Positions 2,221 to 45,987 of a DNA stretch of 52,255 nucleotides are shown here, piece after piece. Position 1 is the first letter of the stretch; each line of letters begins with the position of its first letter. The stretch covers positions 1-52,255 of the IMG/VR virus record IMGVR_UViG_3300025154_000016; one strand, 5' to 3'. This DNA comes from a virus (lineage: Duplodnaviria > Caudoviricetes). The position numbers and the translations under genes were made by a program. The notes under the pieces were generated by a model. That model was not told where the DNA came from. It searched no databases and worked only from the letters and a program-made list of their open reading frames with translations.

Positions 2221-2287
2221 TACTCTAACGAGATCCCCCAGTTTTGGAGGGTCTGCATCAATTCAATTTCCGATAAAAGAAAAAAGA

Positions 2288-2824: not shown

Positions 2825-3135
2825 TCCTTCCGGGTAATAATCCGATAACCGATATTTTCGACACCGTGTTGTTTAATAAATTCAATATAGATTTTATTTC
2901 CGTTGACTAAATCCGAATCGATATATTGATTACATTCGGGGGCGGTAGGATTAATCCCTAAAATTCCTTTGACAAGTAATGTGCGGAAATCATAAAATTT
3001 TTTAGCTTCTAATTTTTGAATAATTCTTCCGTCTTCCGCAAAGATTGCAGGAGATCCCCAAACCGACCATAACGAATGTCGTTTGACCATTCGCTTCCAA
3101 TATTGTGCTTTTGATTTTGCCATAGTTTTCACCAT
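2812..3135 (-). CDS. Hypothetical protein
   Basis: 107-aa ORF. The leader ATGGTGAAAACTATG suggests the true start is 3123. Confidence 0.65.
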   Translation of the reverse strand: MVKTMAKSKAQYWKRMVKRHSLWSVWGSPAIFAEDGRIIQKLEAKKFYDFRTLLVKGILGINPTAPECNQYIDSDLVNGNKIYIEFIKQHGVENIGYRIITRKEWEH

Positions 3136-19441: not shown

Positions 19442-19494
19442 ATTGTAAACCTTTTTAAATATAAGTACAATCTATTTAAGTAATGAAAATATAG

Positions 19495-22464
19495 GTGTTC
19501 TTCTTGGCCAAGAAAAATACACAAACCAAAGCCCTTACCGTTAAACGGAACGGGACTGTAAAGAGAAATGCCAACCCAGCGACGGGGTTAGACTTAACCG
19601 ACCAATATCAGTATTCTATGGGGCGGTATGTTGATCCGTTAATTCTCTATAAGATTCATAATAAAGCGAATGCCGAGATGCGAGAAGTGGTCGCCGAGGC
19701 TGATCCGATTGCGTCCGTGTTGACTCATCATTTCGCAGAATCCGCCAATACGAAAATGATTAAATTCTATGAATCGGATCAATTGGGGAGTCCTGAGATT
19801 CTACAAGATTTTCGATCAATGCTTAAACTGTTTAAATTCCAAGAGCATTGTAAAATGGTGATGCTCCGCGGGCAAACCCACGGTTGGTATATTGTGTATC
19901 CCTTTGTGGATGAGAATGGAATCCCGTTGTGTGAAATCTATAGCGAATATGAATGCAAAGCGGAATATATCAATTATGATCTTCAGAATAATATTCAGAC
20001 CTATCTCGTGCAATTTATTCCTCGCGTCGGATTTAGTCGCAATACCCATCTCCGACAAGTCCGTCGAATGTTCCAGAAAGACCAAGTAATTCATGGGACG
20101 AGAGGAACGTGGTGCTATGGGTTTGGGCATTCGATTCTGGAAGCGGCGTGGGATGCGATTACCAAACTCCGAGAAGAATCGCATACCAATGCCTTTAAAC
20201 AGAAGATCATGCCGTTTGTGCGAGTCCCGGACAATTGGGAAGATTCACAAATTGAAGATTTCATGAAAGCACTCTCTAAAATCGATCAAATGTCGGCGCT
20301 TGTGATGAAAGGGCATATTAATGAGAATACGGGGGAATATACTGATTTACCTGCAATTACATGGGCCACACCCGCGAATCAAACGCCCGCTAAACAGAGT
20401 CAAGGGTCTGGGGGATCGGTCTCTGATTTAAGTTCAGAATGGTCTCGTCTTACTGGTTCTACACGGAGAAGTGTTGCCTATTTCGTGGGTGGAGGAGCCA
20501 TTAGTGCTTCGCTCTCTGCCGCTGCCGTCGACTCGCTCGATGATGTGCAAGCCGATATCTCCGATTTTAACCAATATATCGATGAATTTATTGTGCCGTT
20601 CTGTAAATGGTTTGCCGAAGCCATCGGTTATAAATTACCAGAGACCTTTACGGTCAAAGGGTGGTGGGAATGGACCCGTGATGAAGCAGTTTACAATCAA
20701 CAACTCCAAACCCAACAACAACTTAAACAAGATGCAGAGACTCAAATTGAAGACGCTCAAAAAGAAAAGCGGAATTCGTATATTTTAGAGTATATTAAAG
20801 ATCAAGCATCGAAAGCGGATTTAACTCCGTTTGATCGGGAACTACAAGCCCGCTTAAATCAACGCATGAATGAATCTACCAAGCATCCCGATCAAATTTT
20901 AATGAGTGTTATCACCGAGATTACTCATGAAGCCTTAAATAATAGCGTCCAAACCGAATTAAGTAATTGTATCAAACAGAATATGAATATGCCGATGCAA
21001 GTCGTCGCTTCGTCGACTGTGAAAGGAGTCGGATTACAAGGATCAAAATTATTGGTGGAATTCCATAGCGGTACCAAATATAAAGGCGCCAAATATGCTT
21101 ACGAGTTAGGCGATAACGCCGAACAAGCGTGGTCCGATATGTTACAATCGACCTCGAAAGGAGGGTATGTCTGGGATAATTTGCGAGGAACCCAAATTGG
21201 GCCTGCATGGGGGACGGGCAATCCGACACCCGGAGGTACCACCGCATCGTTAGTCCCCTATGAAAAAACGGGACGGTTAGGACCGGGCTATATGGCGGGG
21301 TCTCGTCAAGAATATGAAAAGCAAGCGGCGGAATCCAAAGAATTCAAAGAAGAATCGTTAGGTGCGGATGGGAAAGCATTAGGGTCTAAACGATATGCTT
21401 ATCCCGAAGAACGCGGGTTTGAAAGTGGCCAACCTTCCGAGTTTTATACTGAAGAGCAAATGTATGGGGGACAAGGCCCTCAAACGGGAACTCCTTCAAT
21501 TTCCTCCGATAATACTACTGCAAATCCCGCTCAATCTGAACTCTCGATTACCGATTATCAAGGAATCGGAGATAACTTATCTACCAATACCCCTAAAAAA
21601 GAAGCCTATACTGCCGAATTCGTGTGGGGATCATCGAAAAATCCTCAAGGGTATGCCCAACGACCCAAAGGCATGAAAACGAAAACGGAAGCAAAAACAA
21701 CAGGAGTTGGGTTTGATTCGACTATCGACGGGAACTTTCCGTCGTTTTTTAATAGTTCGGTTATGAATCGCCGCAATATTGGAATCCAGATCGAGAAATT
21801 GGAAGATTTGCCACCCGCTGTGTTTATTCATCCACTTTTACAAGAGCATAATTCGATCTCTGGAATGCGTAAGAATCTTCATATCGGGTACGAGACGGCT
21901 CATAAACTTCTTGAACAAGATGATTTGAACGTCACTCGTTGTAATTTAGCAGCCGTGTCAACTGCTATGCATACAGCGAACCCCTTCTTATATAAAGTTG
22001 AAGGGGGATATCGGGCAGAATATATTTGTCCAGACTCGTTGAGACTGTTGGAGGGGGTCGAAGTGCCGTATGGACTATGGCATAACCTGGATGATGAGTC
22101 ATCTGCTGAATTACCCGAATGGCAAATTATCGGAACTTATAAAGTAGACCAGATTACGGGCGAGAAAGACCTATCAACTATTACGTATTTGGATAATTGG
22201 GAAGAAAAAGCGAATGAAGTCTTTACCAGACTGAAGGAAACTACCTATTATCAAGATCCGAAAGTCCAATGGTGGGTTGATAATTATATTGACAACGTCA
22301 AAAAAGGGATACATGGGGATGTGTCCACGGGAATTGTCACCGACGTGAAATACGACACAAAGCGAAATAAATGGATTCAAAAGAATATCAGACTGAAATC
22401 CGTTTCGGCAGTACCCATCGGAAACTGTACCAGACCGTTTTGCATGACCAAAGATAAAAAATAG
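19495..22464 (+). CDS. Portal protein fused to a KTSC-like domain and a C-terminal prohead protease
   Basis: Follows the terminase. The N-terminal ~410 aa are portal-like (RGQTHGW, YGFGHSILE). A KTSC pattern (SSTVKGVG...LLVEFHSG..Y.Y...SKGGYVWDNLR) and a protease-like C-terminus (VP..LWHN, DVSTG, SVSAVPIGNC) follow. The probable start is TTG at 19504. Confidence 0.75.
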   Translation: MFFLAKKNTQTKALTVKRNGTVKRNANPATGLDLTDQYQYSMGRYVDPLILYKIHNKANAEMREVVAEADPIASVLTHHFAESANTKMIKFYESDQLGSPEILQDFRSMLKLFKFQEHCKMVMLRGQTHGWYIVYPFVDENGIPLCEIYSEYECKAEYINYDLQNNIQTYLVQFIPRVGFSRNTHLRQVRRMFQKDQVIHGTRGTWCYGFGHSILEAAWDAITKLREESHTNAFKQKIMPFVRVPDNWEDSQIEDFMKALSKIDQMSALVMKGHINENTGEYTDLPAITWATPANQTPAKQSQGSGGSVSDLSSEWSRLTGSTRRSVAYFVGGGAISASLSAAAVDSLDDVQADISDFNQYIDEFIVPFCKWFAEAIGYKLPETFTVKGWWEWTRDEAVYNQQLQTQQQLKQDAETQIEDAQKEKRNSYILEYIKDQASKADLTPFDRELQARLNQRMNESTKHPDQILMSVITEITHEALNNSVQTELSNCIKQNMNMPMQVVASSTVKGVGLQGSKLLVEFHSGTKYKGAKYAYELGDNAEQAWSDMLQSTSKGGYVWDNLRGTQIGPAWGTGNPTPGGTTASLVPYEKTGRLGPGYMAGSRQEYEKQAAESKEFKEESLGADGKALGSKRYAYPEERGFESGQPSEFYTEEQMYGGQGPQTGTPSISSDNTTANPAQSELSITDYQGIGDNLSTNTPKKEAYTAEFVWGSSKNPQGYAQRPKGMKTKTEAKTTGVGFDSTIDGNFPSFFNSSVMNRRNIGIQIEKLEDLPPAVFIHPLLQEHNSISGMRKNLHIGYETAHKLLEQDDLNVTRCNLAAVSTAMHTANPFLYKVEGGYRAEYICPDSLRLLEGVEVPYGLWHNLDDESSAELPEWQIIGTYKVDQITGEKDLSTITYLDNWEEKANEVFTRLKETTYYQDPKVQWWVDNYIDNVKKGIHGDVSTGIVTDVKYDTKRNKWIQKNIRLKSVSAVPIGNCTRPFCMTKDKK

Positions 22465-22590
22465 TCCAGACTAATTTGTCGGCAGTCTACCTTAGTCTGA
22501 TAAGTCTGGCTTTAAATACATGGGCTTAAATAGCCGTTTTTTTTATATTTAATCAATTAAGGTCTATTTAAAGATCTTATAATTGATAAG

Positions 22591-23052
22591 GTGTGTCTCC
22601 TTTTGAAAAAGAAAGTCAAAAAAATGGTTGACGGCGTTGAACAAGAAGTCGAAGTCGATGTCGAAGACGAAGAGAAACGCAACGAATTACCTGACGGCTT
22701 ATTTGCCAAACGAATGATTTTAATGAAATCGGGGAATATGTCCGAAGAAGAAGTCAATCGGTGCAATAGTCTGAAAGATGCCGATGCGTTAATTGAATAT
22801 TATGGGTTAGCAAAGCAAAATAAAGCCCCCGAACCCGAACATAAAGGATCTGTGAGTGGTATTTCGCTTTTACCAAAAACAACCAATCCCGATCCCCGCA
22901 AACAATCCAATCAACGATTGAATAACGAACCCGAAGCCTATTCTGCTGAAGAATTGCTTGATCCGTTAGCAACCGCTGATAGTCGATTGAATCGGTATAT
23001 GGATAGTCCCGAAGTGCGGTTTATCCGCAATCCCGAAGGGAGGCTAATCTAA
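22591..23052 (+). CDS. Capsid scaffold-like protein
   Basis: A charged 153-aa protein between the protease and the decoration/capsid genes. Confidence 0.6.
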   Translation: MCLLLKKKVKKMVDGVEQEVEVDVEDEEKRNELPDGLFAKRMILMKSGNMSEEEVNRCNSLKDADALIEYYGLAKQNKAPEPEHKGSVSGISLLPKTTNPDPRKQSNQRLNNEPEAYSAEELLDPLATADSRLNRYMDSPEVRFIRNPEGRLI

Positions 23053-23053
23053 A

Positions 23054-23521
23054 ATGACTGCGAAAACAGCCGCATCTCATGTGGGTCCAACCATTTGTGT
23101 CTCTCGGAATTATAAAGCCGAATGGGGAGAACTCGCCGATGCGTATTATCCCGGAACTTTAGTGTATGAATCTGCACCGGGGATTTGGACTGCTGCGACT
23201 ACATCCGCAGGAAATTTAAACCGTGTAGGAATTGTGGGATTTAAAGCCCGCGTTGATTCGAATTTTGCTCGTAAAGATATTGATGATGCCTATTCAGCGG
23301 GTGATTCTGTCGAAATTATCGGCACTGGAGTGTGTACTGCTCGTATTGGAGATTTGAATGCAACGGCACTTCGAGGAGTCCGATTAACTTATTCTGCATC
23401 TGCGGGAATTTTCGCATTAATGGCCGCCACTGAAATCTGTTTAGCCACCGTGCATGAACCCGTTGCAGATAACGATACTTATCTCCGTGTCCGCTTAGAA
23501 GGCACGGGTTGGAGGGATTAA
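23054..23521 (+). CDS. Head decoration/cement protein
   Basis: Ala/Gly-rich, 155 aa, directly before the MCP, with PGTLV and IDDAYSAGDSVEI beta-tulip-like patterns. Confidence 0.7.
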   Translation: MTAKTAASHVGPTICVSRNYKAEWGELADAYYPGTLVYESAPGIWTAATTSAGNLNRVGIVGFKARVDSNFARKDIDDAYSAGDSVEIIGTGVCTARIGDLNATALRGVRLTYSASAGIFALMAATEICLATVHEPVADNDTYLRVRLEGTGWRD

Positions 23522-23522
23522 A

Positions 23523-24662
23523 ATGGCACTCAAAAAAATTAATGTTGCGTATGAAAATTCGAATTTTTATTCGAACTTAGATGATAAAGATAAAGCATTA
23601 GTCGACAAAGGAGTCAGTCGTGTTAATGCTCAAATCATGAATGTCCGTAAAAACGGATTACCCGATGCTTATATCGGGAAAGGCAAACAAATGGCCGAAC
23701 GGTTAAACGCTAATCCATCCTATCTTACCGATGAAGCGGTTTATGCTCTTGATTCGGTTATTGCGATGACGGTTGAAGACCAGAATATGTATGGGGAAAT
23801 CATAGCCCCCGTAACCACCCCGCAAAGCGGAGTGAAGTGGTATAACAAATCCTATAAACTCGATGAATTGGATGTCAATAATGCTAAAACATGGCCACAT
23901 CCCGACAAGACCTTTAAAGATGTCGTGCAGTTTGGCTTAGGTGTCGAACCCGAGCAAGCGGAAGGGATGGGGTTCTCCATTGGATATGAAATTCCGTGGA
24001 CAGAAATCGCTGAAAGTGGGGGGTCTATTTATAGTCCTGATTTCTTCTATGCACTCAAAGCGGCAGAACGGATGGGAGTCATTATCGATGAAAACGGATT
24101 CCTTGGGGGACTCGGTGAACACATGTATTATGATTTCGGACTCAAAGGTCTCTTGAATCATGCATCGGCTCAAACCTTTACGACTTCAACTTTAACAACT
24201 TATGGAAATCTCCGATCGGGTCTTTGGAACGGGTTAGGGGATTTGAAAAAGCAATATGCTCCGGGCGAAACTGTATTGGTCATGAGTTCGGGAATTGCAT
24301 CCCAATTGTTCTATAACCGATTTACTTATCACGACACACCCGAATATGATTCGATTGCGAAAGAATTGCGACCGTTTATTTCCCGTGCGTATGTCGATGA
24401 TCGAATTATCGGTGCTACCGCAACCAACGCCAATCAAAAATGGGCTTTAATCAAGATTGGACGCACACTCCAATCTCGGAAATTGGTCTATCCTCTCCAA
24501 ACCAAGCCCCGCATGGATAAAACCTACGCTGAAGATATTAAAGAAGTCTTGATTCATGGGGATGTGTTAGCCCAATATGGACAATCACCTTTCCCAGTGA
24601 CTGTTAGTGCTTCGTTAACAACCACCGATACCGGGTATATCCCGAACGGAAGACTGTGGTAA
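23523..24662 (+). CDS. Major capsid protein (HK97 fold)
   Basis: 379 aa in the expected position. Contains IGYEIPWTEI, AAERMG...DENGFLG and GLKGLLN, typical of DUF2184/linocin-like capsids. Followed by a T-run. Confidence 0.85.
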   Translation: MALKKINVAYENSNFYSNLDDKDKALVDKGVSRVNAQIMNVRKNGLPDAYIGKGKQMAERLNANPSYLTDEAVYALDSVIAMTVEDQNMYGEIIAPVTTPQSGVKWYNKSYKLDELDVNNAKTWPHPDKTFKDVVQFGLGVEPEQAEGMGFSIGYEIPWTEIAESGGSIYSPDFFYALKAAERMGVIIDENGFLGGLGEHMYYDFGLKGLLNHASAQTFTTSTLTTYGNLRSGLWNGLGDLKKQYAPGETVLVMSSGIASQLFYNRFTYHDTPEYDSIAKELRPFISRAYVDDRIIGATATNANQKWALIKIGRTLQSRKLVYPLQTKPRMDKTYAEDIKEVLIHGDVLAQYGQSPFPVTVSASLTTTDTGYIPNGRLW

Positions 24663-24679
24663 TCTTTCTTCTTTTTTTT
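24663..24679 (+). terminator. Oligo-T (archaeal-type) terminator after the MCP
   Basis: TCTTTCTTCTTTTTTTT directly after the stop codon. Confidence 0.6.
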
Positions 24680-24828
24680 ATTAACTCATCTAAAATCCCT
24701 TTGACAAATGTTCAATTCATTTGGGGATTGTTCCGATAGCGGTCACGGACACCAAATAAACCCGCTGCTATGTTTGTACCTCCACGGAGGCTAAATGCAA
24801 TGAAAAACAACACAATAGGTGATCGCTA

Positions 24829-27800
24829 ATGGCAGCGGGAGCGAAATGTAAAGTCCGATTATTTGAACCGTCATCCGAATATGTTAAAAAATCCAAATGT
24901 TTTCAAGATATCATGCAACTCGGAGTCGGGTTTAGTAATACGCTTCATTTATTTGAACTCGAATATGGAGCTTCGTTTAGTAACGGCTTAACAGAAATCT
25001 CAGCGCCCAATGCGGTCTTTAATGGCACGGCAACCAGTGTCCCGTTAGGGATCGTATCTTCCAATGCTGCCGATGATAAAGATAGTACCGCGGTGCAAAA
25101 GGTCAAAGTCATTAGTCTTGATAGTAATGGCGAACCCGATATCACCGAATATACCATGGAAGGCACAACTGCTGTGCCAATTGACACGTATCCCGAACGA
25201 TTGATGCATATGTATAGCACACAATGGGGAGCGGATACCGATGCAACGGGCAATATTATTCTCGCTCGACGAGGCTATCATCAACTCGCAACACCCGCAG
25301 ATATTACGGGCGATACCGAAACGGGCTTAACTGCCAATACTTTATATTATTTTAAAGTCAACATTAACGGCGCTGGGGTGTTAGAATATTATATAACCGT
25401 CACGACTGCATCATGCACATTTGCGACGCTTTTAACTTTATTGGCAGCTGCAAAAGCGGTCGTTGGGGGAGCCACCATTAGTGGAGTGACTTGGTCATTA
25501 GAAAGTGGGGATTTACGATGTACATCCAATTCGACTTTAGATACCGCTTCAATTGCGATTACTGCCGGAACCACTGGCACAGATTTATTAGCTTCGTTAA
25601 CTGGGTTTAGTTCGGTCGATACTGCCGTTGGGTCGGGGTATCAAGAAATTGGTTTAACGGGGATTACGGGTGCGTCTGAAACAGGACTCACACCACAAGC
25701 GGAATATTATTTTACGATTGATATCGATGGCGCGGGTGCAGTCGAATACTATATAACCACTTCTACCGTAGCCGTCACGTTTGATCAATTAATTAGCTTG
25801 TTAAATTCGGCGATTTTAGAATCTGATGATGTCACTGTCATCTCCGGGGTAACCTTTTCCTTAACGGGAGGGGATATTCGTTGCACTTCGAGTTCGACTG
25901 CGACCACCGCATCTATTGATATTACCGCAGGATCAACGGGAACGGATCTATTAGCATCGTTAACGGGATTTACAGCGGTCGATGCAGAAGTCGAAAGTGG
26001 GTATCAAGAGATCGGGTTAACGGGTAAAACCGAATCAACAGAAACGGGTTTAACTCCCAGCACATTATATTATTTTACCTTAACGCTTAATGGAGGAGCT
26101 GCAACCGAATATTATATAACGACAACTACCGTAGCGGTTACTTTTACCCAATTATTAGTGTTACTTGCCGCAGCCAAAAAAGTGTCAGATGATGCGGCAA
26201 TTAGCGGGATTACCTTTAGTTTATCGGGAGGAGATTTAGTTGCTACTTCCAATGAACGGGGAGCCACATCAGCAGTTTTAATTGCAGCGGGAACTACGGG
26301 TACCGATTTGTTAGCAACATTAACGGATTTCTCTGCAATGGATGCTGCGGCCTATATTGCCTATCAAGAAGTGGGATTAAGTGGAAAAGAAACTGAAAAT
26401 CTCACGGGATTATTAGCAACCTCGCAATATTATTTTAAAATTAACGTAGATGGCGCGGGTGTCACAGAATTTGATATAACGACTTCTACCGATTTATCGT
26501 TTACTGCGATTATTGCGTTAATGAATACTGCCACCACATCTGCCGCCACATGGTCATTAACAGGAGGCGATCTCCGATGCACTTCCGATGCGGTTGATGG
26601 TACTGGTTCAATTGCTCTCTCTGCGGGAACTACGGGAGATGATCTCTTTGCACAATTAACGGGATGGTCTACCTTTGATACCGCACAATATATCGGCTAT
26701 CAAGAGTTTGGACTTTCTGGTAAAACTGGAAGCACTGCCACGGGATTAACCACCACATCCACATATTATTATAAAATCAATATTGATGGTGCGGGTGAAG
26801 CGGAAGAATCTATCATCGTAACAGCTGGATCAACCCTCTTTTCTGATATAATTACCTTATTAGATGCGGGAATAAGCGGAGCGGCATTTACAATTGTAGG
26901 GGGAGATCTCCGATGTACCTCTGCGGATACAACGGCTTCGGCAGCGATTGCTCTCTCTATTACGGCTTTAAGTGGCACTTCGTTGTTTGAATCAATGACG
27001 GGATTTAGTGCGTTAGAAACCGCTAAAGGTTCTGCTTATCAAGAATTTGGATTAAGCGGCAAAACGGGCACCGATGCGACCGGATTAACTGCCGTGCAAA
27101 CCTATTATTATAAAGCGAATGTGGATGGAACGGGAGTCGCCGAAAAAAACTTTAATGTCACCGCGGGATCAACAACCTTTACTGATATAATGACTGCCTT
27201 AAATGCTTCCATTGCGGGAGCGGTCTGGTCTGTTACGGGTGGAGATTTACGATTAACATCATCAACATCCATCGCAACCTCAGCCATAGCCTTAAGTTAT
27301 GCATCCTTAACGGGAGCATCCTTTATTGAAGGCTTAACGGGTTTTAGTGCCTTAGAAACTGCGGCTGGGATTGGCTACCAAGAATTTGGACTTACAGGTA
27401 AAACCACCACTACCGAAACGGGCTTAACCGCATCAAATACCTATTATTTCAAAGTGAATGTGAATGGTGCGGGAGTTGTGGAATACGATATAACAGTCGA
27501 TACGACAACCGATACCACTTACGATGGCATAATTGCGTTAATGAATGCAGCATTAACAACAGGTGCAGTGGGGGCTGAATTTGGCTATCCCGATCTTAAA
27601 CTCCGTTGCACTTCTGATAGTGCTGCGGCAGCATCTGCAATTGCGTTAAGTGCGGGATCGACGGGATTAGATCTTTTTGCAACCTTAACGGGTTGGACCG
27701 CGTTTGAATCCGCAGTAGCATATGAATTGTATTTAACCATTGCTGCGGGAGCAAATGAATCCGACGGAGCGGCGTTATGGGTTCCCGAAGATTGGAATAT

Positions 27801-28110
27801 GAGTATTCGAGAGTTAATCTTGAGTCCGACTTCCTACGCCGCCGTTGCACGAGCGGTCGAAGTGAAAGCCGCCCGCACATATATGGATGGTATTGGCGCT
27901 GATCCCGATTTTAGTTATGAGATTATTCGGGTAGCCGCTGAATCAACATCTACCGCGGAAAATCCATGTCGAATACGGAATGCGGATGCCAATGCTAAAT
28001 TAACCTTTTCAGAGACCTACCTCGGTGGGGCGATGGATGGCTTTTTTCATGCCGTTGTGGCGATCTTTGATCCAACCAATACGGGCAGAGGAATAGATAC
28101 ACGGAGTTGA
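24829..28110 (+). CDS. Large virion fibre-like protein with seven ~115-125-aa repeats
   Basis: Thr/Gly/Ala-rich. The repeat consensus is YQE.GL.GKT...TGLT....YYFK.N.DGAG..E...GGDLRCTS...TG.DL...LTGF. AGGTGA SD. Confidence 0.8.
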   Translation: MAAGAKCKVRLFEPSSEYVKKSKCFQDIMQLGVGFSNTLHLFELEYGASFSNGLTEISAPNAVFNGTATSVPLGIVSSNAADDKDSTAVQKVKVISLDSNGEPDITEYTMEGTTAVPIDTYPERLMHMYSTQWGADTDATGNIILARRGYHQLATPADITGDTETGLTANTLYYFKVNINGAGVLEYYITVTTASCTFATLLTLLAAAKAVVGGATISGVTWSLESGDLRCTSNSTLDTASIAITAGTTGTDLLASLTGFSSVDTAVGSGYQEIGLTGITGASETGLTPQAEYYFTIDIDGAGAVEYYITTSTVAVTFDQLISLLNSAILESDDVTVISGVTFSLTGGDIRCTSSSTATTASIDITAGSTGTDLLASLTGFTAVDAEVESGYQEIGLTGKTESTETGLTPSTLYYFTLTLNGGAATEYYITTTTVAVTFTQLLVLLAAAKKVSDDAAISGITFSLSGGDLVATSNERGATSAVLIAAGTTGTDLLATLTDFSAMDAAAYIAYQEVGLSGKETENLTGLLATSQYYFKINVDGAGVTEFDITTSTDLSFTAIIALMNTATTSAATWSLTGGDLRCTSDAVDGTGSIALSAGTTGDDLFAQLTGWSTFDTAQYIGYQEFGLSGKTGSTATGLTTTSTYYYKINIDGAGEAEESIIVTAGSTLFSDIITLLDAGISGAAFTIVGGDLRCTSADTTASAAIALSITALSGTSLFESMTGFSALETAKGSAYQEFGLSGKTGTDATGLTAVQTYYYKANVDGTGVAEKNFNVTAGSTTFTDIMTALNASIAGAVWSVTGGDLRLTSSTSIATSAIALSYASLTGASFIEGLTGFSALETAAGIGYQEFGLTGKTTTTETGLTASNTYYFKVNVNGAGVVEYDITVDTTTDTTYDGIIALMNAALTTGAVGAEFGYPDLKLRCTSDSAAAASAIALSAGSTGLDLFATLTGWTAFESAVAYELYLTIAAGANESDGAALWVPEDWNMSIRELILSPTSYAAVARAVEVKAARTYMDGIGADPDFSYEIIRVAAESTSTAENPCRIRNADANAKLTFSETYLGGAMDGFFHAVVAIFDPTNTGRGIDTRS

Positions 28111-38284: not shown

Positions 38285-38805
38285 TATATAATCACTTCTT
38301 TTTGATATTTAGAACATTCACAAAATCCCAGTCGATACCGCCATTTTAATTGATCTAATGGTCTTCCATTTGCCCCACATTCAAAATCACAAATGGGATA
38401 GATTTCTGGATCGGGATGTTCCAAATCTAAATAATCTCTGGTGGGTAAATAATCTGAAAATTGACATGTAAAACATTGGTAAGGAACAATATTGGTTTTG
38501 AATCTATTCCATAATTGAATTAATTTAAGTTGATCCTTTGTTAAAGGTTTTTCTTCTGCTTCTTTGCATTTTTGTTGTAAAATCAAATCATCAGAATCTA
38601 ATTTGGCTTGAATCTCGGCTTTCCATTTAATGGAATCTTCATCCATTTTCATCCATTGTTTCCATTGTTGCACTTTTCGTTCTACCATCTCAAAGAATGA
38701 ATGGGAACTATAATGCTCGTCTTCTAAATCACTAATCATATTCTTCAAATCAGCGATTAATGTATTTTTGTGTTTATGTATATAAATTTCATCCATTATT
38801 AACAC
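38284..38805 (-). CDS. Hypothetical protein with a Cys-rich C-terminus; N-terminus paralogous to 7-186
   Basis: Shares DLKNMISDLEDEH with 7-186 and contains CFTC...C..C...CEC. Confidence 0.7.
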   Translation of the reverse strand: MLIMDEIYIHKHKNTLIADLKNMISDLEDEHYSSHSFFEMVERKVQQWKQWMKMDEDSIKWKAEIQAKLDSDDLILQQKCKEAEEKPLTKDQLKLIQLWNRFKTNIVPYQCFTCQFSDYLPTRDYLDLEHPDPEIYPICDFECGANGRPLDQLKWRYRLGFCECSKYQKEVII

Positions 38806-39013
38806 CTATTATCTTATTCCATAATCTTTCAACATTATATAAACAGATCCATAATAATGAATAAAGATCTTTTTTAGGGGTAAAATAATGCCCATTTCGA
38901 CATAACATATAACCAATATAATCTGAAGTCATATCGGTTTCTTCAGCAATTTCCAATGTCCCACAAATCGGACATTCTAATTCTTTTTGTTGATTTTTTT
39001 TCATTCTATTCAT
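38789..39013 (-). CDS. Zinc-ribbon protein
   Basis: Contains CPIC...CRNGH. Confidence 0.6.
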   Translation of the reverse strand: MNRMKKNQQKELECPICGTLEIAEETDMTSDYIGYMLCRNGHYFTPKKDLYSLLWICLYNVERLWNKIIGVNNG

Positions 39014-39182
39014 TCCACCATTGTTCTTCTTCTAAAATATATTTCTTCATTTCGGCAATCCAAAATCGCAATCCTTTCTTCCAATCTTCTCGTTCTGTTT
39101 GAGAATAATTCTTATCGGCTTGTAATAACTGTTTGAGTTGGGCTATATGTCTGGCTCCATGTTCCAATTTTGATTCACTCAT
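39006..39182 (-). CDS. Hypothetical protein
   Basis: The probable start is MSES. Confidence 0.5.
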   Translation of the reverse strand: MSESKLEHGARHIAQLKQLLQADKNYSQTEREDWKKGLRFWIAEMKKYILEEEQWWNE

Positions 39183-39199
39183 TGTATTCACTTCCAAAT

Positions 39200-39436
39200 T
39201 TATGTTAAAAAAAGCAGGTCGCCCCATAAGGTTAATTGTTGAGGTTCGTTATTGATGGTTTTAATATATTTTAAACCATAGAAATCAATTTTAGGTCGCC
39301 CTTTCATAAAATAACACCTATCACACATATATATAGTAGGTCGTTCGCCGCGATAATAGATTTCATGATAATGCATTTCTAATGATTCTAAACCACACAA
39401 ATTACATTTGTATTTCGTTGGATTCATATCGGACAC
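39200..39436 (-). CDS. Zinc-finger protein
   Basis: Contains CNLC...CDRC. Confidence 0.55.
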   Translation of the reverse strand: MSDMNPTKYKCNLCGLESLEMHYHEIYYRGERPTIYMCDRCYFMKGRPKIDFYGLKYIKTINNEPQQLTLWGDLLFLT

Positions 39437-39569
39437 CCTCGCATAGTATTACAGATTGGACACATATAGAGTTCCACTTTGGGGGTTTTAAAGACTTTCA
39501 CTAATGTCCAATGAATTTTATCCGTAGGAACTATCGAATAGCCTTTTTTACAGATAAAACAAAAAAGCA

Positions 39570-40115
39570 TCATAAAGCGAAACCCTCCCACTTTTCTATT
39601 GGTTGGGTTAACGCCGTCTTCAAATCAATGACTAATATATGATTCGCTTGCATGAATTCATATTCTTGAACCACGCCTTTCGAATATTTTGATTGTAAAA
39701 GATCTATTCTTTCTTTGGTTATTTGCATGCGAATGTATTGCACGGTTTCCGAAGCAGATTCCAGAACCACGCCGACCACGCCCGAATCATAATTCTTCTT
39801 TTTGGAATCACAAGATGCTGTTATGATTTGATTACATGTTGGACAAATACACCGACCTAAAGCATCTTTTTTCATGAATCGAGAGAGATAAAACAAATCC
39901 TCCGCCACGTAGTCGGGTTGAAAGAGTTCTTTGCGTTGTTTAAACTCTTGGGCAGACCGTTCAACTTCAATGCAATGGCTATGCGTAATCGGACTAAAGG
40001 CATGATAGCCCTTTGCATTCAATTCCAGATAGGCTTTGATATTCTCATCTAATGATGCTTGTTCCCGACCCGTATATTTGCTCATCAGATAGCAACAGAC
40101 TTCTTGTGGGTTCAT
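39570..40115 (-). CDS. DUF1937 / nucleoside 2-deoxyribosyltransferase-like fold protein
   Basis: Pattern YLMSKYT...AFSPITHSH...SKGVVQEYEF...HILV, with a Cys-containing insertion. Confidence 0.65.
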   Translation of the reverse strand: MNPQEVCCYLMSKYTGREQASLDENIKAYLELNAKGYHAFSPITHSHCIEVERSAQEFKQRKELFQPDYVAEDLFYLSRFMKKDALGRCICPTCNQIITASCDSKKKNYDSGVVGVVLESASETVQYIRMQITKERIDLLQSKYSKGVVQEYEFMQANHILVIDLKTALTQPIEKWEGFAL

Positions 40116-40306
40116 TGTGATTGCTCCTTTTCCGTTAATGGTAATCCATATAATTCTTCATCAGAAATATGCTCTCGTAATCGATTAAAATAATCCCCCG
40201 TAAAATCTCCCCCATTAAATCGTAAACACCGAAAACAGACTTCATCATCTTCATCGGGAGCATAACGAATACAGAGCCAACATTTCGGATATTCGATTTT
40301 AATCAT
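40112..40306 (-). CDS. Small Cys-rich protein
   Basis: Contains CWLC...CFRC and has a GAGGTG SD. Confidence 0.6.
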   Translation of the reverse strand: MIKIEYPKCWLCIRYAPDEDDEVCFRCLRFNGGDFTGDYFNRLREHISDEELYGLPLTEKEQSQ

Positions 40307-40614
40307 TCATGGGACACCTCGCGGGGTTGCCAATTCTTCATATCATTATCATGTTTTGTTCCCCAACATAAACACCCACCCATTTCCGATTCCTCGCACG
40401 GATGATCTAATTCATCTATAGGCATGTCTTCATCAAGTTCATGTTCTTTATCACAAATCCATGTTTGCCTACACCAACGACATAAAGATTTGAGTTGGGC
40501 GATCTGCTGGCGGATTTCTTTGGATTTCTCTAATAATATATGATTATCTCGAAATATTCCTTTATAAATATCAATTAAATCCAACAATTCTTCTAATAAC
40601 GCTCGATCACTCAT
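40303..40614 (-). CDS. Hypothetical Cys-rich protein
   Basis: The probable start is MSDR, after AGGTG. Confidence 0.6.
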   Translation of the reverse strand: MSDRALLEELLDLIDIYKGIFRDNHILLEKSKEIRQQIAQLKSLCRWCRQTWICDKEHELDEDMPIDELDHPCEESEMGGCLCWGTKHDNDMKNWQPREVSHE

Positions 40615-40910
40615 CGTATTAACACCTTTGTTTCTTTCAAAATTAATTGATTTATTTTTTTCATTTTTATGATTTGTAGATGTATTTTTTGATGGCAGGA
40701 AGCACATAAGGGTATGCATTTGTTGATTTCTTCTTGAATCATTTGATCAGATTTTCCCAGACATGTCCGATAATTTATTTCGAAATATTTTGTAGTTGAA
40801 TCGATATGATGCCAAGCAATATTTATTTTTGTTTTTGTATTATTACAAAGAAAACATGGTTTTCTCCATTTATTATTAAATTCAATTTTTTTCATTAATC
40901 CCAACAACAT
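40611..40910 (-). CDS. HNH endonuclease (second copy)
   Basis: Contains CFLC...WHHIDSTTK...EEINKCIPLCASCHQKIH. Confidence 0.8.
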   Translation of the reverse strand: MLLGLMKKIEFNNKWRKPCFLCNNTKTKINIAWHHIDSTTKYFEINYRTCLGKSDQMIQEEINKCIPLCASCHQKIHLQIIKMKKINQLILKETKVLIR

Positions 40911-40952
40911 TCAATTTTTATTTGTCTGTAGTTTTTGAGAATTAATTTATCA

Positions 40953-41174
40953 TCATTCATTATTATCACTCATGTTTGGTTCTTTTTGAAAAAAATCCCG
41001 TAATGTATAGAGTTCTTTCGGATCAATTTCGGATTCTTTATGCGTAAAATAGATTTCGGTTAATTTACATGCAATCTCTTCTTTTTTCGGATAACAAATC
41101 GCTTTCGCACAAAAATACCCAAAAATCATAAAGATTTGATCGGCTAATTGTTTATTTTCGTCACAAATATTCAT
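40953..41174 (-). CDS. Hypothetical protein
   Basis: 73 aa with a GGAG SD. Confidence 0.55.
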   Translation of the reverse strand: MNICDENKQLADQIFMIFGYFCAKAICYPKKEEIACKLTEIYFTHKESEIDPKELYTLRDFFQKEPNMSDNNE

Positions 41175-41175
41175 C

Positions 41176-41625
41176 TTAAATCTTTCTCCATACTTGATAT
41201 TCTTTCGTTGATCGTAAGGGACAATCGCCCGGCAAACAGATCATCTTCTTTTTCGGATTATAATTACAATCGGAATAACCCTTAAAATAACACGAATGTT
41301 CGAGACGGATACATTTGAACTCGTTACACTCATCGTCATCCATGAGTTCTTTTCCGCAGACTTGAAAATCTTGGCACAATTGACACATGAGACACGCATC
41401 GTGAGGTTTCTTGGATTCGATCTTCTCAATCTCATGTTCCGTTACGGTTATTTCCGATTTCTTAATCTTTATCCGTTCTTTTAAATCGTTCTTCTTATGA
41501 ATCATTTCCATTTCGATATTTTCTAATTGCAATTGCAAATAGGCTAACATCTTTTCTTCTTGGTCTAACGTTTTATTTAAATCTTTCAAATCATTCATGG
41601 TAATCTCTCCTTGCAGAACCGACAT
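41176..41625 (-). CDS. Coiled-coil plus Cys-rich protein
   Basis: A heptad N-terminal half and a multi-Cys C-terminal half. The probable start is 41598. Confidence 0.65.
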   Translation of the reverse strand: MSVLQGEITMNDLKDLNKTLDQEEKMLAYLQLQLENIEMEMIHKKNDLKERIKIKKSEITVTEHEIEKIESKKPHDACLMCQLCQDFQVCGKELMDDDECNEFKCIRLEHSCYFKGYSDCNYNPKKKMICLPGDCPLRSTKEYQVWRKI

Positions 41626-41812
41626 TCATGAATAATCTTATCGGTTTTCATCCAGTTGGTCACTTCAAACCATATCCCGTTTATTTTGAGCATCGTGCCG
41701 CCAAATTCTTTTTCTATTTGTTGCGGACACACATGCCAATCATCAAATTCTTTTTTCATAAAGTAAATAACACACCTTATTATAAGGTTAGAAAGAAGGA
41801 AAAAATAGATTG

Positions 41813-41831
41813 ACCTTATAAATTATAAGGT
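41813..41831. promoter_or_regulatory. Palindromic operator-like site ACCTTATA-AAT-TATAAGGT
   Basis: Perfect 8-bp arms, with a related palindrome ACCTTAT-T-ATAAGGT at 41774-41788. Confidence 0.7.
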
Positions 41832-42545
41832 TTTAGGATATGGTAAAATCGGATATTTCAATTGAGATAATAATTCTTTCTTTCGTTTTTTTTTATATTC
41901 TTTACAAATAGGATTAAGAAAGACATATCTATGTTTAATCGACCGTTCTTCAAAGGATACTTTATCCCCAAATGTTTCTTTAATTTGTTCAATTGACATT
42001 CCATGTGCAAATGTTGCATGATGTTGATTTTCTAATCCTTTTACTTTTGGATCTTGAAATGGAATTGATTTTCCAGTATAATATGCCGAACATGCTTGAT
42101 AGATAATTCCTAAATGATTTTGCTTTGTATCGGCATAACTTACAATAATTTCTTTATCAAGTAAAGGAATTGTGTGCATAACAAACCAAGATTCTCCATT
42201 TTTAGGAACAGATTTATCTATCCAAAGACGGTTTAATTCATAAACATTATGTTGATTTTGTTCTCCCGCAATACCTTTTAGTAGTGTCGAACTTGGACTA
42301 ACTCCATAAGTTATAACTCCTTTTAAGATATTTTGAGGATATTCAAATAAACCAAATGCTTTTGAAATAGGGCATGAACGATGAAGATAATGATTTTTTA
42401 CCACAATATTGATTGCTCTTTGAGAATTAATCATCTTAATATAATATTTATCTTTGAATAATTCTTTGGGTTTTTGAAAAGAATAAAACAAATCTTGACA
42501 ATCAAAGGAACTTATTTTTGAAATTAATTTCGTCATAATAATCAC
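41823..42545 (-). CDS. Mom-family adenine modification enzyme (GNAT-like)
   Basis: Contains HYLH, GVITYG, YELNRLW...KNGESWF, IVSYAD..QNH.GIIYQA...YTG, KHRY and C-terminal PYPK. Confidence 0.85.
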   Translation of the reverse strand: MIIMTKLISKISSFDCQDLFYSFQKPKELFKDKYYIKMINSQRAINIVVKNHYLHRSCPISKAFGLFEYPQNILKGVITYGVSPSSTLLKGIAGEQNQHNVYELNRLWIDKSVPKNGESWFVMHTIPLLDKEIIVSYADTKQNHLGIIYQACSAYYTGKSIPFQDPKVKGLENQHHATFAHGMSIEQIKETFGDKVSFEERSIKHRYVFLNPICKEYKKKRKKELLSQLKYPILPYPKTL

Positions 42546-42593
42546 CTAATAAAGATAATGAAAAAAGATTGAGATAATCTATTATAAGATCGG

Positions 42594-42887
42594 TTATTTG
42601 AGTAAGAACGGATACACTCGTTCCAAATCACTCATCATTTTGAGAATCTTTTCTGATAATGATTCTAAGATCGGATATTCACTATACGAAAAGGTATGCC
42701 ATTGTTCGATAGTAGCCCACATATCCGAATACAAATAATCCGCTTCTTCAGATTCTTTCTCTTGGTTCGTCCATAAATAATTATTGAAATGGATAAACCG
42801 ATTGGACAGATCAGCAAATTTCAACTTAAATGACAAGACCCGTTGATCAGGATGATACATCACAGTTTGACACATAGTTTTCACCAT
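42594..42887 (-). CDS. Hypothetical protein
   Basis: 97 aa with the ATGGTGAAAACTATG leader. Confidence 0.6.
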   Translation of the reverse strand: MVKTMCQTVMYHPDQRVLSFKLKFADLSNRFIHFNNYLWTNQEKESEEADYLYSDMWATIEQWHTFSYSEYPILESLSEKILKMMSDLERVYPFLLK

Positions 42888-43119
42888 AATTCAATAATAA
42901 AAAAATTATTTCGTTAATCCATAGATTAATTCTTCAATGTATAAACATTGGTCAAGGACTTCAACTTCTTTTTCTGTATTGGGAATAAGTTGAAGTGTTT
43001 TTTTTAACATAGATAATTTCGTTTTTAACCGTAAGGTCATATCTTGAAGTATTTCGATTTCAATAAAATCCATACATTTCACTCCTAAAATTAATTAAGA
43101 AATCGAACTATTTAACTCT

Positions 43120-43204
43120 TACTATAGGATTACTATAGATAAGATACTATATAAAGACTTGATAAAATAGAAATATATAAATACTATAGGGTTTACTATA
43201 GTAA
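43120..43204. promoter_or_regulatory. Divergent promoter region with TACTATAG repeats
   Basis: TACTATAG at 43120, 43131, 43182 and 43194, and TACTATAT at 43145. Confidence 0.7.
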
Positions 43205-43213
43205 TAGATTGTT

Positions 43214-43399
43214 ATGAATTCTCAAAAAAAACGAACAATTAGTTTTTATATGCCTAAAGAGATTGAAGGAAATCCCAAAGAAATCCTTCAAGAACTCGGT
43301 CAGTTGTTTATGGCTTTTGCAAGTCATGTCACTGAAGATGATTTAAATGAAATGAAAGAAGCCTATCCTAAAGCATTTAATTTTGTGGAGGCTATTTAA
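43214..43399 (+). CDS. Small putative DNA-binding protein (RHH-like N-terminal strand)
   Basis: KKRTISFYMP forms an alternating beta-strand followed by helices. Confidence 0.45.
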   Translation: MNSQKKRTISFYMPKEIEGNPKEILQELGQLFMAFASHVTEDDLNEMKEAYPKAFNFVEAI

Positions 43400-43730
43400 A
43401 ATGCCAAAATTAATCGCGGGTAAAACGAAAATTATTAAAGAAGAAAAGAAAGAATTATTAAATCCCGACGATGCGGAATGGTATGATCGCGAGACGCTCC
43501 AAGAACTTAAAGTCCAACTGAAAGCAAAACCCGTTAAAGAATCTAAAAAGAAAGCCGACAAACCTTCCTTAATTTCGATAACGGAAAAAGAGAAGTTTAT
43601 CAACTGGCTCCGAACGTCCACTTCGAATAATCCCCAACTCAAACGTATCAGACTCAAAGATGGCGGCTTCCGCGATTGTGTGCCACGAGGGATGATCGAT
43701 TTGTTCAATGAATATGTGGAGGAAACATAA
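43383..43730 (+). CDS. Basic hypothetical protein
   Basis: The probable start is MPKL at 43401, after GGAGG. Confidence 0.6.
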   Translation: MWRLFKMPKLIAGKTKIIKEEKKELLNPDDAEWYDRETLQELKVQLKAKPVKESKKKADKPSLISITEKEKFINWLRTSTSNNPQLKRIRLKDGGFRDCVPRGMIDLFNEYVEET

Positions 43731-44431
43731 TGAAATTCATTCAAACCGATTTTTTTACCTATCCGTTTACCGAAACAATTCAAGGAATAGTCACGGACGT
43801 TCCCTATAAAGGATGTCTGACCAATAAACTCGAAGAAAAAGATTTCGATGTCGCGTGGTTCCTTCAAAAATGTGATGAATTAACTCCCCCAAATTCCTTT
43901 TTAATTACGTTTTCCAATATGGCAATGATTTTAGATATGCGGAGTTTAGCTAAAGATACTAAATGGGAATTTCAAACTTATCAAATCTGGAATAAAGAAC
44001 CTGTGAGAACATGGATTGCATGGTCAAGACCCTTACGCACATGTGAGTTTGTGTTATATTTTACGAAAGGTAATTATAAACTTAATTTTAAAAATGGAGA
44101 AGTTAAACCTATGAAAAAACGGAATTCATTTGGAGGTTCCCTTAAACAAACTAATCCTAATACCAATAAAGAATCATTTGGAATGTATTCTGAAATAGTT
44201 AATTATCATACCCCTAAAACTAAAATTCATCCAACCCAAAAACCAACAGAATTTAGTTCTATGTTTAAGCAAGTGTTGGGAAATCCCGAAGGAATTATAT
44301 TAGATCCATTTTGTGGTTCGGGTTCCTTATTACATTCCTTTTCTAATTCGATTGGCATTGATGTGAAAGATTGGATTTATCCCAAAAATAAAACGCTTGC
44401 ACAATGTATGGAAGAGGTGAAATCTAAGTGA
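43730..44431 (+). CDS. DNA methyltransferase (N4-C/N6-A, beta class)
   Basis: Motif IV variant TDVPY, IHPTQKP, and motif I ILDPFCGSGS. Confidence 0.85.
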   Translation: MKFIQTDFFTYPFTETIQGIVTDVPYKGCLTNKLEEKDFDVAWFLQKCDELTPPNSFLITFSNMAMILDMRSLAKDTKWEFQTYQIWNKEPVRTWIAWSRPLRTCEFVLYFTKGNYKLNFKNGEVKPMKKRNSFGGSLKQTNPNTNKESFGMYSEIVNYHTPKTKIHPTQKPTEFSSMFKQVLGNPEGIILDPFCGSGSLLHSFSNSIGIDVKDWIYPKNKTLAQCMEEVKSK

Positions 44432-45225
44432 TTTTCATGACGGATATTTCGACTGATTGTTCGAACTATTGTTTACTTAATATTAAGAAATATGATGATC
44501 CACGCAAAGCAAAGAAGAAATTAATCTTTGTTGATCCTGATGTGATGAGTTTACGCACCCATCGAGAATATCCTTTAATTGATAAACTTTTATGGTTAGC
44601 TAATGGTCATTTACAACCCAACGAATATTTAGGTTTAGACATGCCTTCCGACATGAATCATCAATATGAAGATGAATTTATTCGCAAATCCATTGAACGA
44701 AATTGGCAATTTAAAGACAATCTGCAATATATTTGTGGGATACAATATAAGTTTTTGGATATAAACAATTTTAAGATTCAAATGAAAGCATTAGAACCCA
44801 TTTATGATCATAAACAAAAGATAGTGGGATTAGGAAATTTATGTCGATTATTATTAGGAAGGCGAAAGAAAACCAATCCCGAATATGTTTACTTTCAACA
44901 AATTATTAATTATATAATTGAGAATAAAGAAAAGTTTTATTGGATTCATATTTATGGCATGTCCAAATTTGCGATTTGTTCATTTATTCCCTTACTGCAA
45001 AAACACGCACCAAAGATTATTATTAGTGTCGATAATACCAAATGGACTAAATGCGGGAATAAAGAATTACATGATAAATATGTCTTACCCAAAGGTCAAT
45101 CGCAATTACTTCCGACTACACATAAAATGACAGGTGTGGGTTGCACAAAAGCCAATCGGAATGAGTTTTTAGAGATTGGATATATAAAAGATTTTAAAAA
45201 AGCAAACATTAAGATTCAATATTAG
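44428..45225 (+). CDS. TGT/DpdA-like (queuine tRNA-ribosyltransferase-fold) protein
   Basis: Contains FVDPDV, LDMP, GIQ, IVGLGNLCR, WIHIYGM and ISVDNTKW, in the order seen in phage DpdA-like transglycosylases. Confidence 0.6.
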   Translation: MIFMTDISTDCSNYCLLNIKKYDDPRKAKKKLIFVDPDVMSLRTHREYPLIDKLLWLANGHLQPNEYLGLDMPSDMNHQYEDEFIRKSIERNWQFKDNLQYICGIQYKFLDINNFKIQMKALEPIYDHKQKIVGLGNLCRLLLGRRKKTNPEYVYFQQIINYIIENKEKFYWIHIYGMSKFAICSFIPLLQKHAPKIIISVDNTKWTKCGNKELHDKYVLPKGQSQLLPTTHKMTGVGCTKANRNEFLEIGYIKDFKKANIKIQY

Positions 45226-45228
45226 ATC

Positions 45229-45987
45229 TTACAAAAACGCCGTGATCTTTTTTCGCTTGTTCTTTTTGTTGCGATCTTGTCCTAATTGAATCCGATGTAA
45301 AATATCTAAATCGTAACCCGCTGGTAATCCTTTATCGGAAAGATTCAATTCGGTACCAATCCATTTAATACCTAACGATTCCCCGACTTCAGCTAAACAA
45401 CCCGATCCCATAAATGGATCATATACTAAACTCGGTTTAAGATCTTGTATCATTTCAGCCCATGTTTTATAATCTTTGGGAGATGGATGGTTGTATTTAT
45501 ATTCTTCGTCTCGCAAGAATCCGTTATGGATATAAGTTTCATAGACATCCCGATGAAATTTATGCTCTTTCCACCATTGCTCGTCCCCAAAACAGTAATA
45601 ATCCATTTTTGCAGAATAGTGAGAGATTTTAGTTGATCCTTGCCCATTTTTATAATAGAGTGTTACCCAGTCAATAGGTTGAAAAGATTCAATCCACCAT
45701 TGTTTATGTTTGCGTCCAACACAGATTATTTGAGCTTTGGAGACCCGTTGGGCTTCTAAAAACCAGTTTATATGAAATTCGGGATTCCATTGATCATTAT
45801 AAGGCACACGATCTTGTTTATGGGCTTTTTGATTAATACCCATTGGTTTTTGGGCATGATCTTGATAATCATGTCCCCATAATGTGTCGGTAAAAATAAG
45901 ATCGATGGATTTGTCGGGTAAGGATTGCATATATTCCAGACAATCTTTAATAATACACATTCCATAAGTGCCTTCAATCAGATTCAT
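45229..45987 (-). CDS. DNA methyltransferase-like protein (beta class) with an atypical motif IV
   Basis: Contains DCLEYMQSLPDKSIDLIFTDTLWG, HPSPK, VYDPFMGSG and WIGTEL. Confidence 0.85.
   Translation of the reverse strand: MNLIEGTYGMCIIKDCLEYMQSLPDKSIDLIFTDTLWGHDYQDHAQKPMGINQKAHKQDRVPYNDQWNPEFHINWFLEAQRVSKAQIICVGRKHKQWWIESFQPIDWVTLYYKNGQGSTKISHYSAKMDYYCFGDEQWWKEHKFHRDVYETYIHNGFLRDEEYKYNHPSPKDYKTWAEMIQDLKPSLVYDPFMGSGCLAEVGESLGIKWIGTELNLSDKGLPAGYDLDILHRIQLGQDRNKKNKRKKITAFL

Follow-up and report, generated by a model that had tools for sequence, protein, structure and literature searches.

A predicted zinc-less DpdA-like protein encoded among Mom-family and DNA methyltransferase genes in an archaeal-type virus genome

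What might a 265-residue protein devoid of recognized domains contribute to a cluster of viral DNA-modification genes, and do the genes of this cluster serve one pathway or several? The question is raised by the uncultured tailed virus (Caudoviricetes) recorded as IMGVR_UViG_3300025154_000016. The window analyzed here is the whole 52,255-bp record, a complete virus genome (direct terminal repeats; CheckV 100%) containing replication and repair genes of archaeal type (PCNA, an Lrp/AsnC regulator, a D5-type primase-helicase, and an ERCC4 nuclease). An original prediction, made from the sequence alone, had placed within 4.2 kb a Mom-like gene, two methyltransferase (MTase) genes, and a gene related to tRNA-guanine transglycosylases (TGTs) and to the DpdA enzymes, which insert 7-deazaguanines into DNA. 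All four open reading frames (ORFs) were confirmed, and they span 4165 bp in total. We propose, with a probability of about 0.6, that the region represents an accessory set of independent modification genes protecting progeny DNA, in which the TGT-like protein, designated mini-TGT, is DpdA-like, the Mom-family enzyme momylates, one methyltransferase (MTase1) methylates, and the other (MTase2) may be weak.

The mini-TGT gene (44428..45225, + strand) encodes a protein that was not matched by any model in Pfam, PHROGs, PADLOC, or NCBIfam, including the NCBIfam DpdA model NF041059. Comparison with 50,697 phage and virus records by tblastn returned nothing at E ≤ 1. In six-frame searches of the genome, the models PF01702 (TGT) and PF23859 (DpdA) detected nothing at E ≤ 1, and no second TGT/DpdA gene was found. 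Relatives were obtained from larger collections: 23 unnamed proteins among 5.8 billion, and about 105 clusters at 50% identity in a profile search among 1.84 billion. The alignment used below (A3) contains 79 rows chosen by length, comprising the window protein, 69 of the 105 clusters, and 9 of the 23 relatives; fragments under about 209 residues were omitted, as were P0082, P0088, and P0106 (865 residues, 14 short stretches). The median length of the family is 256 residues. Sequence-profile searches of the PDB gave nothing meaningful, the best E values being 0.13 with another mini-TGT alignment (A1) and 0.21 with A3. The nearest clusters of the ESM Atlas consisted of viral hypothetical proteins, one bearing PF01702 on 15% of its members and one bearing PF23859 on 17%, an observation retained only as a lead.

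Structure prediction provided a clearer indication. The AlphaFold model of mini-TGT, based on 21 sequences, comprises eight strand-helix units (pLDDT 90.5, pTM 0.87) and is predicted to be a (beta/alpha)8 TIM-barrel of the TGT type, as had been proposed for this protein. The model is of low confidence (pLDDT 58-59) after strand 8, in the region that replaces the zinc subdomain. Foldseek comparison with the PDB gave no match at E ≤ 1e-3; the DNA preQ0 insertase DpdA (7ui4; E 3.2e-3) ranked first, ahead of mouse TGT and Cap10. Searching the viral structure collection BFVD returned five matches at E ≤ 1e-3, and the named proteins among the top 20 were queuine tRNA-ribosyltransferases or tRNA-guanine transglycosylases of phages or archaeal viruses, together with a 259-residue phiST protein. 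TGT/DpdA proteins ranked first in three independent structure searches.

Profile comparison connected mini-TGT to a family of zinc-bearing viral TGT/DpdA proteins, which was the closest family detected by this approach. Its reference member, P0247, is a 393-residue protein encoded directly downstream from queC in a related locus (L026, ORF 1915-3096); it has weak NCBIfam matches to TgtA and DpdA and displays the motifs of a canonical viral TGT/DpdA protein (GDSGGFQ, LDYP, FHFLG, FDSTS, and CDCPVC). Homologues of P0247 were assembled into an alignment of 36 viral TGT-family proteins, 20 of which harbor PF01702 (A5). When A3 was compared with A5 by hhalign, 189 columns spanning residues 1-210 of mini-TGT were aligned with a probability of 96.1% and an E value of 3.7e-9. 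The D...DYP...HxxG...DS(T) motifs were common to the two families and occurred in the same order. With P0247 numbering for A5, D36 of mini-TGT paired with D70, the Asp of GDSGGFQ, D71 and P73 with D103 and P105, H174 with H211, and D202 with D239; the partners D70, D103, and D239 are invariant in A5. The mini-TGT positions were themselves highly conserved in A3, since D71, H174, and D202 were present in 79/79 members, Q106 in 77/79, and D36 in 76/79. The report on bacterial DpdA assigns acid/base and nucleophile functions to Asp95 and Asp256 and base reading to Asp130 (PMC10164549). Judging from the alignments, D36, D71, and D202 would correspond to the roles of Asp95, Asp130, and Asp256. The proposed TGT fold was thus upheld by the model, by the structure searches, and by a profile match placing the catalytic Asp residues in register.

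The original prediction had also singled out two divergent motifs of mini-TGT. Both are real (D36-P37-D38 in place of DSG and V201-D202-N203 in place of DS), but 53 of the 79 members of A3 harbor the canonical D-S at the nucleophile position and 14 harbor D-N. In the alignment, D-N is a trait of the clade of the window protein, and the DP sequence is family-wide. The further suggestion that the substrate could be new found no support, the nucleophile motif being mostly canonical. The two families differ clearly in their zinc site. The members of A5 are about 350-460 residues long and contain both GDSGGFQ and CxCxxC...H in 36/36 cases, whereas mini-TGT is shorter and zinc-less, the CxCxxC motif being found in 0/79 members of A3; both types of protein are encoded in L026. 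The zinc-less character is shared with DpdA1 of phages 9g and CAjan, for which insertion of preQ0/G+ into DNA is described as shown genetically (PMC6884629). Since 9g-type DpdA1 sequences also lack CxCxxC (0/15), loss of the zinc site is not disqualifying, and this site does not define all DNA-acting DpdAs. The DpdA1 segments IFLDSGAFS, LGG, VHGFG, and SCDSSSW are co-linear with IFVDPDVMS, LGN, HIYG, and SVDNTKW of mini-TGT, the IFVDPDVMS pair coming from a second alignment.

The gene context of the relatives was also informative. Forty-six related loci were retrieved, and 120 neighboring ORFs were scanned from the 25 loci with usable flanks. In L026, a QueE-like radical-SAM fragment, FolE, QueC, and the canonical DpdA are followed by two unknown ORFs and mini-TGT, beyond which come methyltransferases of the N6_N4 and MT-A70 types. 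The MTases of this locus (L026:1-10617) comprise one MT-A70, at least four N6_N4 enzymes confirmed by Pfam, and two more paralogues detected by blastp, in a cluster that contains two different TGT-fold genes. In two other loci, a gene for the QueT transporter is located directly downstream from mini-TGT (L034:3452-3922 and L044:547-1017; PF06177, E 2e-19 and 6e-20) and is followed by a Dam-like D12 methyltransferase gene, in a virus-like contig; L034 and L044 probably represent one lineage because their gene neighborhoods are similar. The proximity of QueT suggests that the virus drives salvage of a queuosine precursor. In L002, where mini-TGT is 72% identical to the window protein, a 272-residue ORF (L002:3248-4066) lies between an MTase1 orthologue and mini-TGT. 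It gave sub-threshold matches to the ArcS C1 domain/DUF5591 (PF17884, 1.8e-4; NCBIfam ArcS, 0.0068), and the ESM Atlas contained no usable match for it; the assignment to ArcS C1 is tentative. Viral ArcS proteins are reported to consist of the C1 domain alone (PMC10516641). Altogether, genes for 7-deazaguanine synthesis or salvage were found near mini-TGT in 3 to 4 of the 25 loci (L026, L034/L044, and, weakly, L002). The relatives located beside FolE/QueC or QueT support a link between the mini-TGT family and 7-deazaguanine chemistry.

The virus itself would probably depend on an external supply of the base. Six-frame searches of the complete genome with hidden Markov models (HMMs) detected no QueC, FolE, QueD/PTPS, radical-SAM, or QueT sequence, in keeping with the initial observation that queC, queD, queE, and folE were not recognized; similarly, no QueC was found in the complete 43-kb genome (G001) behind the related locus L001. 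Most archaea make preQ0 for archaeosine. Because the complete genome contains neither preQ0 pathway nor transporter genes, the base would probably originate from the pool of the host. There is precedent for this arrangement. In Salmonella phage 7-11 and Halorubrum virus HRTV-29, a TGT-fold gene is described as occurring alone, without preQ0 synthesis genes, the host being presumed to provide preQ0 (PMC6884629, PMC8651126); for phage 7-11, use of host preQ0 is reported to have been demonstrated, and for HRTV-29 it is a proposal (PMC8651126). Protection against restriction is the role likewise predicted for these lone viral DpdAs. They belong to another sequence family, and mini-TGT differs from them by its shorter length (265 residues), by D-P-x in place of D-S-G, and by the lack of a Pfam TGT/DpdA match. 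Scavenging of host preQ0, as originally envisaged, is therefore compatible with the gene content of the virus and with the lone-DpdA precedent.

Considering the alignments and the structural model, we infer that mini-TGT most likely exchanges guanine in the viral DNA for a 7-deazaguanine base. D202 would attack C1' of a DNA guanosine and displace guanine, with D36 assisting as acid/base, and the edge of the base would be read by D71 together with Q106 or H174. The covalent intermediate would then be resolved by a free 7-deazaguanine, most probably preQ0, taken from the host pool.

Several observations weigh against such a DpdA-like role. None of the 79 members of A3 matched the Pfam TGT, DpdA, or DUF6610 models (E ≤ 0.01), and the residue following D36 was Pro, instead of the Ser of DSG, in 61 of them. 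Comparison of A3 with 9g-type DpdA1 (A4) was statistically weak (hhalign probability of 3-7%, E 0.005-0.013), and the global mode of hhalign produced a trivial alignment; the 9g-type DpdA proteins listed have no precomputed Pfam domain either. DpdA4 (HVTV1_69, PF20314/DUF6610) is also found in archaeal tailed viruses and is described as the sole modification gene of some genomes (PMC10516641). Attempts to obtain activity from DpdA3 and DpdA4 in E. coli are reported to have been unsuccessful (PMC10516641). No similarity between DpdA4 and mini-TGT was detectable (hhalign 0.2%; PF20314 in 0/79 members), HVTV1_69 itself matching PF20314 with an E value of 2.7e-56. The HMM derived from A3 detected nothing at E ≤ 10 in five genomes, with one exemplar genome per subfamily (HVTV-1 for DpdA4, 9g for DpdA1, nt-1 for DpdA2, CP220 for DpdA3, and STSV2). 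L026 encodes mini-TGT alongside a canonical DpdA that bears the zinc site, and mini-TGT may have another role in this locus. Finally, 21 of the 25 loci, mostly short contigs, displayed no 7-deazaguanine gene nearby, and two of the positive loci, L034 and L044, look like one lineage. Relative to the DpdA of the bacterial Dpd system (S. Montevideo, PDB 7UI4), as described in PMC10164549, mini-TGT is devoid of the zinc site and of the large Ins8 insertion, and no gene for the DpdB ATPase was recognized among the window ORFs scanned. Since matches to DpdA1, DpdA4, and the exemplar genomes were weak or absent, and since the name 'DpdA5' was not found in the literature searched, mini-TGT reads, from sequence comparison, as a candidate undescribed zinc-less DpdA-like branch or subfamily of the TGT/DpdA superfamily, located outside bDpdA and DpdA1-4 as compared with these exemplars.

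Other activities are conceivable, given that L026 also encodes a canonical DpdA, that Ser is replaced by Pro after the acid/base Asp, and that the structural scores are moderate. A catalytic protein that does not insert preQ0, acting with another base or derivative, in another sequence context, or as a DNA glycosylase without re-insertion, is a doubtful proposal. It would fit the L026 locus, which speaks against simple redundancy of the two TGT-fold genes, the replacement of DSG by D-P-G/D/S in the family, and the poorly modeled region that replaces the zinc subdomain; in addition, a proposal that DpdA3 uses other bases than preQ0 has been published (PMC10516641). Conversely, the QueT and FolE/QueC contexts indicate queuosine-precursor chemistry, D71 is invariant, as is the base-reading residue of guanine-type TGTs, and no other base-synthesis genes were found among the window ORFs scanned. 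The narrower idea that mini-TGT is a second, distinct DNA base-exchange enzyme, with a different base, derivative, or sequence context, is unlikely. It would explain both the canonical DpdA neighbor in L026 and the translational coupling to an MTase1-type partner here, in L027, and in L032. If it were true, the virus would carry an undescribed guanine modification alongside momylation and methylation.

An RNA substrate appears quite improbable. Under this hypothesis, mini-TGT would be a viral tRNA-guanine transglycosylase altering host or other tRNAs, as the names of its nearest structural matches might imply. The protein lacks the zinc subdomain and the C-terminal RNA-binding extensions of ArcTGT, its model aligning to chain residues 34-322 of 577, and no tRNA gene was found in the virus genome. 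DNA methyltransferase genes are its neighbors in the window and, within 3.5 kb, in 10 of the 25 related loci (the other 15, mostly short, contained none), and the viral TGT-fold proteins reported as tested to date modify DNA (PMC6884629, PMC10516641). Cap10 ranked third in the PDB search, and mini-TGT might be imagined to attach a deazaguanine to a protein, as a Cap10-like enzyme, or to be a non-catalytic partner with a TGT fold, as QTRT2. Both roles are very improbable, as there was no PADLOC match at E ≤ 1, in a model set that would cover CBASS-associated families, the complete genome encodes neither a QueC-like protein nor a cyclase as partner, and the conservation of all three catalytic Asp residues is a poor fit to a non-catalytic subunit. 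It is equally hard to sustain that the resemblance to TGT is a generic TIM-barrel artefact concealing an unrelated function, even with the lack of meaningful PDB profile matches. The 96% profile match (E 3.7e-9) was obtained with viral proteins bearing PF01702 and placed four catalytic positions in register, the structure searches converged on TGT/DpdA, and the relatives occur in queuosine-precursor gene contexts. Exchange of guanine for a 7-deazaguanine in DNA is thus the activity that we retain as most likely for mini-TGT.

The Mom-like assignment of the gene located at 41823..42545 (- strand), which encodes a 240-residue GNAT enzyme, was fully supported. The product matched PF25680 with an E value of 5.3e-35 (121.3 bits for a cut-off of 27.1) over positions 2-202 of the 202-position profile, as well as phrog_1384 (E 3e-37); in the six-frame search, the same signal scored 121.4 bits and was confined to this gene. 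Alignment with the structure of phage Mu Mom by phmmer (chain 8bv8_A, E 4.1e-7) enabled comparison of the active sites, the Mu Mom residue numbers being the chain numbers plus 9 (our own count, checked on R111 and on the site of S124A). Mom is described as transferring glycine from Gly-tRNA(Gly) to the N6 position of deoxyadenosine in double-stranded DNA, with subsequent rearrangement to N6-carbamoylmethyl-deoxyadenosine; R111, S124, and R151 of the Mu enzyme are reported to be essential and H58, Y59, D149, and Y159 to be important (PMC13219725). Six of these seven proposed active-site residues are identical in the viral protein (H58, Y59, R111, S124, D149, and Y159). The viral protein and Mu Mom (PDB 8BV8) are thus alike by a family match over the whole length and by these six residues, but they differ by Lys in place of R151, by Gln in place of the dimer-interface residue W48, and by the archaeal type of the present virus. 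The enzyme is predicted to carbamoylmethylate DNA adenines at N6 in a reaction that depends on Gly-tRNA(Gly). Since the gene is carried by an archaeal-type virus, the tRNA(Gly) partner would be archaeal.

Both remaining genes encode members of the N6/N4 MTase family, as had been claimed, although they may provide only one active enzyme. MTase1 (43730..44431, + strand; 233 residues), of the beta class, matched PF01555 above the cut-off (E 9.2e-14, 52 bits) and the PADLOC model MTase_II (2.4e-15). MTase2 (45229..45987, - strand; 252 residues), a beta-class-like protein, scored slightly below the PF01555 cut-off (E 3.8e-5, 24.2 bits for a cut-off of 26.7) and matched phrog_67 (1.2e-10), a PADLOC type II MTase model (2.7e-12), and the NCBIfam CcrM model (2.8e-10, far under the cut-off of the model). 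The N6_N4 signal of the genome was confined to these two genes in six-frame searches. Both proteins retain an intact motif I, the SAM-binding site of the FxGxG type, which reads DPFCGSG for MTase1 and DPFMGSG for MTase2; its D, P, F, and two G positions do not vary in the MTase alignment (A2). The canonical motif IV of beta-class N6/N4 MTases is (D/S)PP(Y/F/W). In A2, this motif is DVPY in MTase1 and DVPY, DPPY, or DPPF in its orthologues; MTase2 shows DTLW at the position of DPPW or DPPY in five paralogues from L026. It is this substitution that may reduce the 'two methyltransferases' to one active enzyme. No close relative of MTase2 was found in the viral contig collection, and, judging from its sequence, the protein may be impaired, inactive, or repurposed. 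MTase1 would methylate N6 of adenine or N4 of cytosine, with MTase2 weakened or inactive.

The association of MTase1 with mini-TGT recurs in related loci. MTase1 orthologues are located directly upstream from mini-TGT in L027 (53% identity, DPPY) and L032 (47%, DPPF), and one ORF away in L002 (70%, DVPY), any DNA methyltransferase being nearby in 10 of the 25 loci only. In the window, coupling of the two genes in a + strand mini-operon was confirmed: the stop codon of MTase1 and the GTG start codon of mini-TGT overlap as GTGA, GGTG is located 8 nucleotides upstream, and the residues encoded before the next ATG of mini-TGT are common to its homologues. Genes of the - strand flank this + strand block (43214-45225), and a gap of 3 bp separates its end from the convergent MTase2 gene. 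It is preceded by an AT-rich divergent intergenic region (43083..43213), a putative promoter according to the sequence and the ORF layout. The block opens with a 61-residue ORF (43214..43399, + strand) without Pfam or PHROG match. This ORF is followed by a 115-residue ORF (43383..43730, + strand; alternative start at the ATG at 43402), which abuts the start of MTase1, has only a sub-threshold Pfam match, and has no counterpart in the related loci.

For four genes placed at random in a 52-kb genome, we estimated the chance of their lying together within 8% of its length at approximately 2 in 1000, but functional clustering of genes is normal in viruses. The four genes look like independent modules, conferring three parallel chemistries instead of a single pathway, because a Mom homologue accompanies the TGT-like gene in 0 of the 46 related loci. 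The layering of several modifications, as first proposed, would accordingly be the sum of separate activities, namely carbamoylmethylation of adenine at N6 by the Mom-family enzyme, methylation by MTase1, and introduction of a 7-deazaguanine base by mini-TGT; the resulting layered modification would most likely shield progeny DNA from host restriction.

Other features of the genome were recorded. A pentapeptide-repeat protein is encoded at 2288-2824 (- strand; PF00805, E 3e-15); proteins of this type can mimic DNA, and an anti-restriction role of this product is conceivable. Upstream from the Mom gene, a run of small ORFs (38789-41759, - strand) encodes many CxxC pairs and appears zinc-ribbon-like by eye, and the Cys/His arrangement of the 99-residue ORF at 40611-40910 is HNH-like. 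The ORF at 10434-11444 (- strand) encodes an RNA ligase whose OB-fold is of the PHA02142 type (PF09414, 9e-29; PF21189, 2e-24) and may be a counter-defence gene for tRNA repair. The G+C content is 42-45% in the structural-gene block (18000-28000) and 29-36% elsewhere, a shift of about 10 points inside one complete viral genome. Publicly available DNA of this virus was found in groundwater metagenomes (10 rows from 5 studies, all contigs, with no RNA run among them). A scan of genome contigs with the 617-residue ORF at 17588-19441, the presumed terminase, revealed no provirus and no host, and a scan of the same type with alignment A1 revealed no relative.

These observations bear on how modified viral genomes are recognized. 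The gene used as a signature of 7-deazaguanine in viral DNA is DpdA (PMC10516641). Since the Pfam models for TGT, DpdA, and DUF6610 do not detect the mini-TGT family, surveys based on known models would miss these viruses. No virus combining DpdA and Mom hypermodification was described in the literature searched, as judged by titles or the beginning of abstracts. With a Mom-family enzyme whose key residues are intact and a neighboring DpdA-like gene, a single archaeal-type virus genome would be hypermodified on adenine as well as on guanine. That members of the family occur beside a viral QueT gene, and in one cluster with a second DpdA, raises questions of base salvage and enzyme specialization, and mini-TGT proteins, at about 250 residues, would offer a minimal zinc-free scaffold for the study of base exchange in DNA.

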